Assembly (NCBI GenBank): GCA_034678725.1
Contig: JAXDBM010000049.1
Location: 10,878-74,877, forward strand
Reading direction: 5' to 3'
Length of the DNA: 64,000 bases
Origin: Syntrophales bacterium
GTDB lineage: Bacteria > Desulfobacterota > Syntrophia > Syntrophales > Fen-1087
Shown here: positions 48,401 to 51,459 of the stretch, piece by piece
Position numbering within the stretch: the first letter of the stretch is position 1
Layout of the letters: every line of letters begins with the position of its first letter
Made by a program: the position numbers and the translations under genes
Notes under the pieces: model-generated
Database searches by the model: none
Told to the model about the DNA's origin: nothing
What the model saw: the letters and a program-made list of their open reading frames with translations, nothing else

Positions 48401-49477
48401 TCAGAGGGGTCCCTTCTTGGCGGCGTGCGCCTCCAGGGCATTTTGGATGATGCGGTCGATCAGGTCGGCCTGCGTGATCCCGGCGGCCGCCGCCTGATGG
48501 AACAGGACGGTGGAGGGCGTCATCCCCGGCAGGCTGTTGGGCTCGAGCACCGCGATCCGACCGCTTTCGGTGACGAACATGTCGATCCGGGCATAGCCCT
48601 TCAGATCGAGCGCCTGAAAACTCCGGACTGCGATGTCCCGGATTTTTTCCAGAGTTTCCTTCGGCAGGCGTGCCGGGGTCTTGTTCTCGCCCTGCCCGTA
48701 GAGGAATTTGTCCTCCAGGGACAGGATCGCCGTCGTCGGGATCGTCTCGGAGGGGGTGAGCGCGACGGGATGGTGATTCCCGACGACCCCGCAGGTGACC
48801 TCCATGCCGGTCAGAAATTCCTCGACCAGGACGGTGTCATCCCAGGCAAAGGCCCCTTCCAGCGCCTCGGGGATGCCGTCCGCGGAGACGACCTTCCGGA
48901 CCGCCGTGCTGCACCCTTCCCGGGTGGGCTTGACCACGCAGGGGTAGCCGATCTCCGAGGCGATCTTCTTCAGGATCGCCTCGCGGCTGTCAGGCGTCCA
49001 TTGTCCACTGAAAATCGGCAGCGTGCGGGGCACGTCGATGCCGCTGATGGACAGGATCTTTCGGCCGGTCCACTTGTCCATGCCCAGTGCCGAGGCCAGA
49101 ACGCCCGAGCCGGTGTAGGGGATTCGTACAAGCTCCAGGAGCCCCTGCATGCAGCCGTCCTCTCCGTATTTGCCGTGCAGCCCCAGGCAAACCACGTCGA
49201 CCCGGGATTTGATCTGCTCATAGGCGATGGGCGTTGCCTCGTCGGGAAGGTCCTCCTCGATGTCCCGAGTGCTGTTGCGCATCAACAGTTTGATCGGGAT
49301 TTCCCAGAGGGCCGCCCTGCTGTCCATGAAAATGGCGACCGGATCGTATTTCCGGCGGTCGATCTTGCTGTAGATGTTTCTGCCGCTCTCCAGGGAGACC
49401 TCCTTTTCCGATGAGACTCCCCCCATGATGATGCCGACCCGGAGTTTGGCGGCGGGATGATCCGTTGATGAAGCCAT
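48401..49477 (-). CDS. ddl: D-alanine--D-alanine ligase family protein (paralogue 1; omega-loop Lys-Phe)
   Basis: [43 protein letters not shown], and an ATP-grasp C-terminus [10 protein letters not shown]. The omega-loop reads [11 protein letters not shown]. Confidence 0.9.
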   Translation of the reverse strand: [358 protein letters not shown]

Positions 49478-49495
49478 GGCTGTTGTTCCTTGGAT

Positions 49496-50275
49496 TTAGA
49501 AACCGATGGAAATTCCAACAAAAGGCCCGTTGCAATCCACATCCGCGTAAATGTCGCTGATGTCGTCCAGTTCGAGCTTCATGACGCGATAACCCGCGTG
49601 AATGTCGAGAAAAGGGAAGGGGGTCACGGAAATCTCCGCCGAGGCGTCGTAGAACTGGTTGCCGGAGTAGCCGGTCCAGGCGCCGTTCACGCGGGCCTCC
49701 AGGATGTTGGCGATCAGCCCGATATGCAGTCCCGCCCCGACCATGGGAAGAACGGCGGTGAACGTCCGTTTCTGCTCGCCCAGTTCCGCGGAGGACATCC
49801 TCGTTTCGCCGTCGATGTACCGCACCCTTCCCAGCAGCCCGAAGGAGAAGCCTCCCAGAGCGTTCTCCAGGTTGACAAGGTCGTACCGGTACTCCCCGTC
49901 GAACATGTTTATTTTGAAGCTGGAATCGACGACGGAATTCGTTTGATAGGCTTGGCCGTTGAAGGTGATGGGCCGGCTGATGCTCGCGCTCGCCGAATAA
50001 TCCAGCGGCGTGTACATGACGCTGAAGTGATGGTTTCCGCCTCCGGCATAGACTTCCACGGAATAGGTCAGCTCATCGTCGAGCCCCAGATCGTCTTTCA
50101 GGTCTACATTGTCGCCTTTTATTCCGTCTTTGTCCGCACGCATCGTGCCCTCGATTTTGGGCATCCACAGAAATCCCCGCGCGCCGAATTCCACGGCGCC
50201 GGCGCTTGCCGACAGCATGGTCACGATCAGAAATCCGGCAAGCGCGGCCAGAACCACCCCGTGCTTTTTTTTCAT
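49496..50275 (-). CDS. Outer-membrane beta-barrel protein (259 aa)
   Basis: ATG 50275. Signal peptide MKKKHGVVLAALAGFLIVTMLSASAGA, alternating strands, and C-terminal ...VGISIGF. Confidence 0.7.
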   Translation of the reverse strand: MKKKHGVVLAALAGFLIVTMLSASAGAVEFGARGFLWMPKIEGTMRADKDGIKGDNVDLKDDLGLDDELTYSVEVYAGGGNHHFSVMYTPLDYSASASISRPITFNGQAYQTNSVVDSSFKINMFDGEYRYDLVNLENALGGFSFGLLGRVRYIDGETRMSSAELGEQKRTFTAVLPMVGAGLHIGLIANILEARVNGAWTGYSGNQFYDASAEISVTPFPFLDIHAGYRVMKLELDDISDIYADVDCNGPFVGISIGF

Positions 50276-50403
50276 GAAACCTCCTGAAAACGCCCGCATC
50301 CGCGCATCCGCGCATTTTTTAGAATCCGCGGCAACATCGCAAATAATCCCGTCCAGTGCAAGCGAAAATGCATTCCCGTTCCCGCCATGCCCGGCGCTGA
50401 ATT

Positions 50404-51459
50404 TCAGAGGGGGCCCTTCTTGTCCCGGTGGATCGCGAGGGCGTTCCGGATCAGGGCGGAGATGATCATCCCGGGCAGGAGGCCGGCGCTGGCAGCCTGC
50501 TCGAAGAAAAAGGAGGAGGGTGCCATGCCGGATGAAGAGTTGGGGTCGGTGATCAGGATCCGGCCGTCCTTCAGGCAGAATCCGTCAATGCGGCCGTAGG
50601 AGCGGAATCCAAGGGCATGGTAGGCCCGAAGCACGGATTCCCGGATTCGATCCGCCGTTTCGCGGGGGATGTTTTTCGGCGGCGTGAATTTGCGGCATCG
50701 TCCGGGCATGTACTTGTCGTCATAGGTGTAGTAGGCGCTCTGCGGGTAGATTTCCGTCAGTTCCAGCACCCGGGCCTCTCCATCGTCCTCCAGGACGATG
50801 GCGGAAAATTCGATGCCGTCGAGATACTCCTCCACCAGGGCGGCGTTGTCCCATTGGAGGGCGGCGTCGATGCCCGCCGCGAGGCCGGCCGGATCGTCCA
50901 CACGGGTGACGCCGACGCTCGATCCTTCGCGGGTCGGTTTCGTGAAGAAGGGGAAGGAAAACCGCTCCAGGATCTCCTTTTGGACGGCCTCCCGCCTTTC
51001 CCGCCAGTCCCATGCGGTAACGACCATGCTGCGCGGCACATCGATTCCCTCCGACATCAGGACTTTCTGCTGGAGATGCTTGTCCATGCCGAGGGCGGAT
51101 GCCAGGACGCCGGGGCCGGTGTAGGGGATGTTCAGGAGTTCGAGCAGCCCCTGGATGCAGCCGTCGTCCCCGTACTTTCCGTGCAGGGAGATGAAGGCGA
51201 AATCGATTTCCCTTTTCAGGTCCTCGTAGGCGATCCGGCGGGCCTCCCCTTCGAGGTGGTCGGAGATGTCCAGGGTCGTGTTCTGGGAGATGAGCTGCCA
51301 CGGAATGACCCACAGCCTCCCCTCGGCGTCCATGAAGATGGGAACGGCCCCATACAGCTCGGGGTCGAGGTTGTCGTGAACGTTCCTTCCGCTGTTGAGG
51401 GAGACCTCACGTTCCGAAGACATCCCCCCCAGAATGATCCCGATGCGCAGTTTTTTCAT
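50404..51459 (-). CDS. ddl: D-alanine--D-alanine ligase (paralogue 2; canonical omega-loop Lys-Tyr)
   Basis: ATG 51459. [17 protein letters not shown] and [26 protein letters not shown]. The omega-loop [11 protein letters not shown] resembles E. coli DdlB FYDYEAKY. Confidence 0.9.
   Translation of the reverse strand: [351 protein letters not shown]

Follow-up and report, generated by a model that had tools for sequence, protein, structure and literature searches.

The stretch of DNA analysed here (the window) comprises 64,000 nucleotides from a Syntrophales bacterium (assembly GCA_034678725.1, contig JAXDBM010000049.1, positions 10,878 to 74,877) and carries two paralogous genes of the Ddl family (D-Ala-D-Ala ligases), ddl1 and ddl2. 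They belong to a cluster of four genes that all lie on the minus strand, head to tail, in the order alr fusion, ddl2, OMP gene and ddl1. The alr fusion (51735-53720) encodes a 661-residue alanine racemase (Alr) fusion protein. Ddl2 (50404-51459) has 351 residues if translation begins with the ATG at MKKLRIG; the open reading frame as called mechanically begins with a TTG at 51546. The gene of the outer-membrane beta-barrel protein (OMP) spans 49496-50299 (267 residues, likely start at 50275, MKKKHG), and the cluster ends with ddl1 (48401-49477, 358 residues). The GC content at third codon positions (GC3) of the four frames is 0.75-0.87, which supports all four as reading frames. The separation of ddl2 and ddl1 is 944 nt, with the OMP gene in between and ending 18 nt before ddl1. 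Upstream of alr, at 53745-53772 on the minus strand, a promoter-like site (TTGACA, a 16-nt spacer and TATGAT, with an extended -10 TG) agrees with the sigma-70-like consensus at 11 of 12 positions and lies 25 nt from the alr start at 53720; it is a consensus match only. No comparable promoter-like site was found inside the four-gene cluster.

PF01820 and PF07478 are found in both Ddl1 and Ddl2, and both proteins exceed the NCBIfam cut-offs of the family: the two score 285.4 and 267.1 against a cut-off of 262 for NF002528, a D-Ala-D-Ala ligase subfamily, and 261.7 and 249.8 against 245.65 for TIGR01205. Their sequences are 46% identical over 350 residues. The initial annotation of this DNA, which had described two related Ddl-family paralogues flanking an OMP gene near an alanine racemase fusion, is borne out by these results. 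Recent gene conversion between ddl1 and ddl2 was considered and rejected; their most similar stretch has only 78% DNA identity and shows no sign of a recent conversion tract. Within that stretch the same codon is used at 19 of the 31 identical residues (61%), compared with 56% gene-wide. In the Protein Data Bank (PDB), 1EHI, which stands for the lactic-acid-bacteria ligases in this comparison, is among the weaker sequence matches of Ddl1, at 127 bits versus 195 for DdlA-type structures.

The omega loop of Ddl1 reads ILSLEDKFL and is without the aromatic residues of the canonical loop, and that of Ddl2 reads YYTYDDKY. Both loops had been quoted exactly in the initial annotation, as had the codon of Ddl1 Phe258 (48704-48706, minus strand). 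Its further claim that Phe258 is homologous to Tyr216 of Escherichia coli DdlB was put to an alignment check set beforehand, and three methods concur. In phmmer matches to solved DdlA structures, in a MAFFT alignment (for which RefSeq, plasmid and PDB records supplied DdlB and DdlA of E. coli as well as VanA and VanG) and in hmmalign, Lys257-Phe258 of Ddl1 corresponds to the Lys-Tyr that ends the omega loop, Lys215-Tyr216 in DdlB. Three other changes in Ddl1 had been overlooked. Cys189 (codon 48911-48913, minus strand) occupies the position of DdlB Ser150 in the hmmalign alignment, and Thr323-Val324 (codons 48506-48511, minus strand) occupy those of Ser281-Leu282, which, according to established structural work on DdlB, form the pocket for the carboxylate and side chain of D-Ala2. 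In place of the canonical Glu15-Ser150-Tyr216 triad Ddl1 therefore has Glu24, Cys189 and Phe258, with two of the three members changed; the Cys at the Ser150 position means that an altered second-substrate site is better supported than was known when Phe258 was first pointed out.

Ddl2 has the canonical Ser180 and Tyr250 (codon 50710-50712), together with Asp305 at the position of DdlB Glu270 and Phe317 at that of Leu282. The residues needed for catalysis and for binding ATP and Mg (in DdlB, Glu15, His63, Lys97, Lys144, Glu180, Glu187, Lys215, Arg255, Asp257, Glu270 and Asn272) are all present in Ddl1. They are present in Ddl2 too, except for the conservative replacement of Glu270 by Asp, which is the norm in the N-modules described below. 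Since every one of these ATP, Mg and catalytic residues is kept, both modules should be active ATP-grasp ligases.

The nearest homologues of these proteins come from metagenome-assembled genomes of Syntrophales and Syntrophaceae, at identities of up to 99%. The motif [VIL]L[ST]L[EKQ]DKF is found in 120 of 120 nearest Ddl1 homologues, so that the loop change in Ddl1 is not a matter of chance. A scan of species-representative genomes gave 80 Syntrophales loci, 65 of which have enough upstream sequence to be informative; 52 of the 65 have ddl2 as the gene immediately upstream of ddl1, and nearly all of these 52 also have the Alr fusion. The Ddl1 signature is kept in 74 to 80 of 83 orthologous sequences and the Ddl2 signature is identical in all 52 orthologues from the Syntrophales loci. 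The set of changes in Ddl1 has thus been under long-term purifying selection. Envelope and housekeeping genes are conserved nearby as well, namely those for a CHASE2 cyclase, for MlaE/MlaD and for DHH and AIR-synthase-like proteins, and so is the gene for a small protein with a HELxH motif, to which we return below.

An exhaustive search of 50%-cluster representatives with Ddl1 as the query showed where else such a ligase occurs. Of the 149 representatives closest to Ddl1, 104 contain two complete Ddl modules in one protein of 650-950 residues, and these rank directly after Ddl1's own cluster. We split the modules and aligned them to one model, which gave 106 N-modules and 106 C-modules. In DdlB numbering, position 150 is Ser in 81 of the N-modules and Cys in 98 of the C-modules; position 216 is Tyr in 103 and Phe in 100, respectively; position 270 is Asp in 101 and Glu in 98; position 281 is Ser in 101 and Thr in 97; and position 282 is Phe in 92 of the N-modules and Val or Cys in 88 of the C-modules. 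The C-module loop is [IV]L[ST]LEEKFL (for example, LSLEEKF), and the catalytic residues are conserved in N- and C-modules alike. Ddl2 has the N signature at five of five positions, and Ddl1 has the C signature at five of five positions as well as the loop (ILSLEDKF). The two genes, ddl2 first and ddl1 second, follow one another just as the N- and C-modules do in the fusions.

Fusions of this kind occur in Candidatus Dependentiae/Babeliales (~740 residues) and in Actinomycetota (for example Dactylosporangium and Pseudofrankia, ~800 residues), and there is one of 885 residues in a Bacteroidota-like context. A second split pair, N followed by C with a 4-nt overlap, is found at locus L088. An AlphaFold model of a Dependentiae fusion has a mean predicted local distance difference test score (pLDDT) of 90.5 and a predicted template-modelling score (pTM) of 0.86 over 754 residues, and would fit a fixed arrangement of the two modules. 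Foldseek comparison of the fused model with the PDB gave single-module matches only, with a query-normalised TM-score (TMq) ≤ 0.41, so that there is no solved structure of a two-module Ddl. The plant DDL of Arabidopsis and Physcomitrium is likewise described as a fusion of two putative DDL enzymes (PMC9954125). In the moss, the precursor ends in Ala-Ala and the closest relatives of its Ddl are in the Fibrobacteres-Chlorobi-Bacteroidetes group (PMC9434261), which fits the Bacteroidota-like fusion class. A protein of our own set, P0180, had been regarded as algal and as having a transit peptide, and was set aside when it proved to be actinobacterial.

At the Bacteroidota-like locus (L091:6001-9430; GCA_054037795.1, contig JBPLEC010000007.1) the 885-residue two-module ddl overlaps a PASTA-domain gene at its 3' end. 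This gene, of a peptidoglycan-binding family, is followed by one with a type IX secretion sorting domain. Fusions of the L091 class have large insertions in the central domains of both modules. In one metagenome sample (3300033146), a single C-type and a single N-type ddl lie on separate contigs (L089:5001-6047 and L090:4882-5901), the C-type gene being situated between the gene for ribosomal protein S20 and an L24/L5 ribosomal block; N-type and C-type ddl may be unlinked in some organisms.

Class membership of the two ligases was assessed with hidden Markov models (HMMs) of the classes and with distance-based neighbour-joining (NJ) trees, in which bootstrap grouping was scored by a tolerant test and masking removed 22 signature and loop columns. 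Ddl2 scores 386.6 with the N model, 339.4 with the canonical model and 286.7 with the C model, and it groups with the fusion N-modules in 86% of the bootstraps (73% when masked). On these alignments Ddl2 is robustly N-type. Ddl1 groups with the C-modules in 84% of the bootstraps, where it branches basally alongside two further proteins that have a single module. The exact-split bootstrap of the two superclades is 29-30%, a value that is due to rogue taxa and distance-cap error.

The homology of the residues, their conservation, the shared gene order of the operons and the reappearance of both signatures in fusions suggest that Ddl1 and Ddl2 are the separate halves of a two-module Ddl and act with Alr to supply peptidoglycan precursors, probably as a heteromer; we give this reading a probability of roughly 0.55. 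The alr(fusion)-ddl2-(omp)-ddl1 cluster would be an operon of housekeeping type, with a role in the cell wall through the supply of D-alanine and its ligation for peptidoglycan precursors. Ddl2 would correspond to the first (N) module and Ddl1 to the second (C) module, the two forming a complementary pair and not interchangeable isozymes. As regards their physical association, we infer that they cooperate, most likely as a heterodimer like the intramolecular pair of the fusions; the support for this is indirect and comes from the fusions, from the conserved adjacency of the genes and from the pTM of 0.86 for a fused homologue. As regards their products, Ddl2, with its canonical Glu-Ser-Tyr triad, would be expected to make D-Ala-D-Ala. 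The acceptor pocket of Ddl1 (Cys189, Phe258, Thr323 and Val324) appears to be remodelled and would be without the hydrogen-bond network that favours an amine nucleophile. Ddl1 most likely still makes D-Ala-D-Ala, with a relaxed acceptor specificity and some D-Ala-D-hydroxy-acid as possibilities. The Phe is one element of a fixed signature that, in the two-module Ddl proteins of unrelated phyla, is always paired with a Tyr-bearing first module, and therefore points mainly to a paired ligase architecture.

Several observations weigh against this reading. Once the 22 columns are masked, Ddl1 groups with the C-modules in just 15% of the bootstraps, and its masked HMM scores are 375.8 for the canonical model, 347.7 for the C model and 344.9 for the N model; the assignment of Ddl1 to the C class would thus rest on the active-site region. 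Ddl1 and Ddl2 are 46% identical, as compared with a mean of 26% between the N- and C-modules within fusions, and for this reason a later duplication followed by convergence on the signature is possible. In 13 of the 65 informative Syntrophales loci, including that of a complete 4.57-Mb genome, Ddl1 occurs with no Ddl2 within 10 kb, so that adjacency of the two genes is not obligatory. Two readings of the ancestry remain: the Syntrophales pair may be a split version of the two-module Ddl that branched off early and has evolved slowly, or the signature of Ddl1 may be convergent. The association of the signature with a partner N-type module holds under either shared descent or convergence.

The initial annotation had drawn from Phe258 a different hypothesis, that the genes could form a module for an alternative peptidoglycan terminus such as those known from Van clusters or lactic acid bacteria, in which Ddl1 would be a dedicated D-Ala-D-lactate (depsipeptide) ligase. 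The biochemistry that it cited is real: DdlB Y216F breaks the hydrogen bond between Tyr216 and Glu15 and gains D-Ala-D-Lac synthesis, and in lactic acid bacteria Phe versus Tyr decides between a depsipeptide and a dipeptide product (PMC3378904, PMC5996685). In Ddl1, Phe258 and Cys189 alter two of the three triad residues, and the conserved HELxH protein usually encoded downstream of ddl1 could be a peptidase. However, the L. reuteri Ddl has the triad F258-E17-S186 (PMC3378904), the Ser being kept in the lactic-acid-bacteria enzymes, and the Ddl1 loop lacks the canonical aromatics. The absence of vanH- and vanX-like genes that had been noted for the window was upheld when tblastn with VanH, VanX and VanY gave no match at E ≤ 1e-3 across the 64 kb of the window and 81 related loci. 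The NCBIfam models tell the same story, Ddl1 and Ddl2 scoring 188.2 and 169.0 with NF000206 (D_ala_D_lac; cut-off 550) and 142-165 with the specific Van models (cut-offs 650-775). A Van-type module was rejected on these grounds, namely the lack of VanH, VanX and VanY in the window and the 81 loci and scores far below cut-off with all Van models. The proposed terminus module also sits poorly with the finding that the Phe belongs to a multi-residue signature that recurs beside Tyr-bearing first modules. Dependentiae, which are intracellular, Actinomycetota and a Bacteroidota-like lineage all have this signature fixed beside a Tyr-type module, for which reason a constitutive housekeeping role fits better than a terminus switch; moreover, glycopeptide pressure is unlikely to matter where an outer membrane is present. 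The context argues against a Van-like or lactic-acid-bacteria-like switch of the terminus, because no genes for D-lactate supply or a dipeptidase are linked, because Ddl1 shares a single promoter-like site with its Tyr-type partner ligase and the racemase, and because selection by glycopeptides is implausible in lineages that have the signature fixed. Synthesis of D-Ala-D-lactate by Ddl1 is possible but unsupported, and that the operon builds an alternative terminus we consider improbable. Much the same degree of doubt attaches to an obligate Ddl1-Ddl2 heteromer whose Cys/Phe/Thr/Val module makes D-Ala-D-lactate or some other D-Ala-D-X. If such an obligate heteromer existed, it would be conserved, split or fused, in Syntrophales, Dependentiae, Actinomycetota and Bacteroidota-like bacteria and possibly in the chloroplast DDL of plants, and with a second product it would mean that lineages unlinked to glycopeptide resistance natively make a second stem terminus or a D-Ala conjugate. 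The idea of a D-Ala-D-Ser ligase acting with a VanT-like racemase arose since VanG and VanT-G gave the best Van scores; the two ligases reach 214.8 and 198.3 with the VanG model, where the cut-off is 495. VanG (4FU0) has Lys-Tyr at DdlB Lys215-Tyr216, not Phe, and Arg at the position of Leu282. This candidate was rejected, there being no Arg at the 282 position in our ligases and the racemase passing the Alr equivalog.

A simpler account is that Ddl1 and Ddl2 are independent, redundant isozymes like DdlA and DdlB of E. coli, each forming its own homodimers, with the Phe and Cys of little effect. The complete catalytic sets in both proteins, the E. coli precedent for two Ddl in one genome and the 13 loci that have Ddl1 without an adjacent Ddl2 are all in keeping with it, and the DdlB Y216F mutant of Park et al. 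(1996) is said to still make D-Ala-D-Ala. Isozymes would not, however, be expected to occur as fixed-order fusions in several phyla with reciprocal and nearly invariant signatures, nor to have both modules in one polypeptide even in the reduced genomes of Dependentiae, and both signatures are essentially invariant over ~80 Syntrophales species. We regard redundancy of this kind as unlikely. Ddl-like ATP-grasp ligases also serve in natural-product pathways, and the product of Ddl1 might lie outside peptidoglycan altogether, for instance in an OMP-linked envelope component or a secondary metabolite containing D-Ala. The 18 nt between the OMP gene and ddl1 and the envelope-related Mla genes conserved nearby would suit such a role, but 28 of the 52 operons lack the OMP, conservation beside the pair does not extend to any biosynthetic genes, the partner genes encode Alr and a Ddl of canonical type, and the fused forms occur in unrelated housekeeping contexts. 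A product of this sort therefore seems very improbable.

The other proteins of the cluster and its surroundings can be described more briefly. The catalytic part of the alanine racemase (residues 1 to ~388, 52557-53720, minus strand) matches PF01168 and PF00842. It reaches 358.7 bits with TIGR00492 (alr), where the cut-off is 168, and is below the cut-offs of the VanT serine-racemase models (340 vs 460 and 212 vs 900). It is followed by a C-terminal extension of ~271 residues (51735-52556, minus strand) for which no Pfam, NCBIfam or PDB-profile match was found, and for which a single-sequence AlphaFold model was unusable (pLDDT 39). The extension is fused to Alr in ~50 Syntrophales loci at 59-96% identity. 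Many of its Cys, Trp, Arg and Tyr positions are invariant.

The OMP matches TIGR04219 over its full length with 94.7 bits (E = 4.9e-27), which is below the cut-off of 105, and would thus be a relative of that family and not a certified member. It has a signal-peptide-like N-terminus and a C-terminal Phe. Its gene is present in 24 of the 52 ddl2-ddl1 loci and absent from 28, and is an optional insert in the operon; outside the closest relatives the identity of the protein is 38-56%.

The HELxH protein (43195-43731, minus strand) has 178 residues, its orthologues having ~175; its HELxH motif, LYIAAHELVHVIRF, is invariant, and the protein shares 63% identity with the corresponding neighbour at locus L043 (L043:11191-11718). 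Orthologues occur among loci L003-L081, downstream of ddl1 in 63 of 80 loci, at a distance of 60-360 bp in 24 and of 1-5.4 kb in 39. There is no Pfam, NCBIfam or PDB match to it. It could be a small metallopeptidase, and its membership of the ligase system is uncertain. Neither the HELxH protein nor the C-terminal domain of Alr nor the OMP was found beside the two-module ddl genes of loci L086-L093.

In the present window an insertion (44004-48200) parts ddl1 from its usual downstream neighbours, the HELxH gene included. It carries an insertion-sequence (IS)-type transposase with helix-turn-helix (HTH) domains (44004-45173, minus strand), a metallo-beta-lactamase and rhodanese protein (45672-47102, plus strand) and a sulphur-transport (YeeE/YedE-like) protein in two halves (47020-47634 and 47634-48200, plus strand). 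Beyond the insertion, at 38131-43731, lie the genes for the HELxH protein, for DHH and AIR-synthase-like proteins, for MlaE and for an ABC ATPase that also contains a GGDEF domain. On the upstream side, a ribbon-helix-helix antitoxin (a sub-threshold match to Antitox_RHH) and a ParE-family toxin, overlapping by 14 nt, are encoded at 54005-54497 on the plus strand; the pair adjoins the promoter region of the operon on the strand opposite to it. Further away, the stretch at ~24000-28500 has a GC content of 0.50-0.52, compared with ~0.62 elsewhere in the window. It includes genes for an Na+/H+ exchanger (25260-26486) and a ClC chloride channel (27062-28477), and may have been acquired horizontally.

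Ddl is a classic antibiotic target, and Tyr versus Phe at position 216 is the textbook determinant of dipeptide or depsipeptide synthesis. The sequences assembled here point to a natural and strongly conserved class of Ddl modules in which Phe216 appears together with Cys150 and altered residues at 281 and 282, and which is coupled, by fusion or by adjacency, to a Tyr-type module. The tandem DDL of plants and the Tyr/Phe rule were already known. The reciprocal signatures across the whole class, its spread over bacterial phyla and the split operon of Syntrophales seem to be undescribed in the searchable literature, and a search of the literature for LSLEEKF, LSLEDKF and related signature motifs returned no papers. 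If the pairing is functional, it would account for the retention of a double Ddl in plants and in several phyla of bacteria, and the split system would offer two separately expressible proteins with which to probe the role of the second module. It would also make Phe216 alone a poor marker, in annotation, of D-lactate termini or of intrinsic glycopeptide resistance.

Compared with known systems, the Syntrophales pair shares with the Van ligases for D-Ala-D-Lac and D-Ala-D-Ser its superfamily and, as in the vanT-containing clusters, a racemase in the operon. It differs from them in that Ddl1 is without the VanA-type omega loop (IFRIHQEV in VanA) and in that there is no Arg at the Leu282 position, where Ddl1 has Val324 and Ddl2 has Phe317. 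The ligases of lactic acid bacteria (L. mesenteroides LmDdl2 with Phe261 and L. reuteri with Phe258) resemble Ddl1 more closely in having Phe at the Tyr216 position and the DdlA-like long form; however, they keep the triad Ser where Ddl1 has Cys, and each is the single Ddl of its cell whereas Ddl1 is paired with a Tyr-type Ddl. The E. coli DdlB mutants Y216F and S150A/E15Q have a disrupted triad (PMC3378904), as does Ddl1, naturally and at two of the three positions. The mutants are engineered, single and of the short form, whereas Ddl1 is also changed at 281, at 282 and in the whole of the omega loop. The two-module Ddl differs in being one polypeptide instead of two genes separated by 944 nt and an OMP gene, in a mean inter-module identity of 26% instead of 46% and in the character of its second module, Ddl1 not being robustly C-type beyond the active site. 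With it Ddl2 and Ddl1 have in common both signatures, the order in which they occur and the retention of all the catalytic residues in both units.

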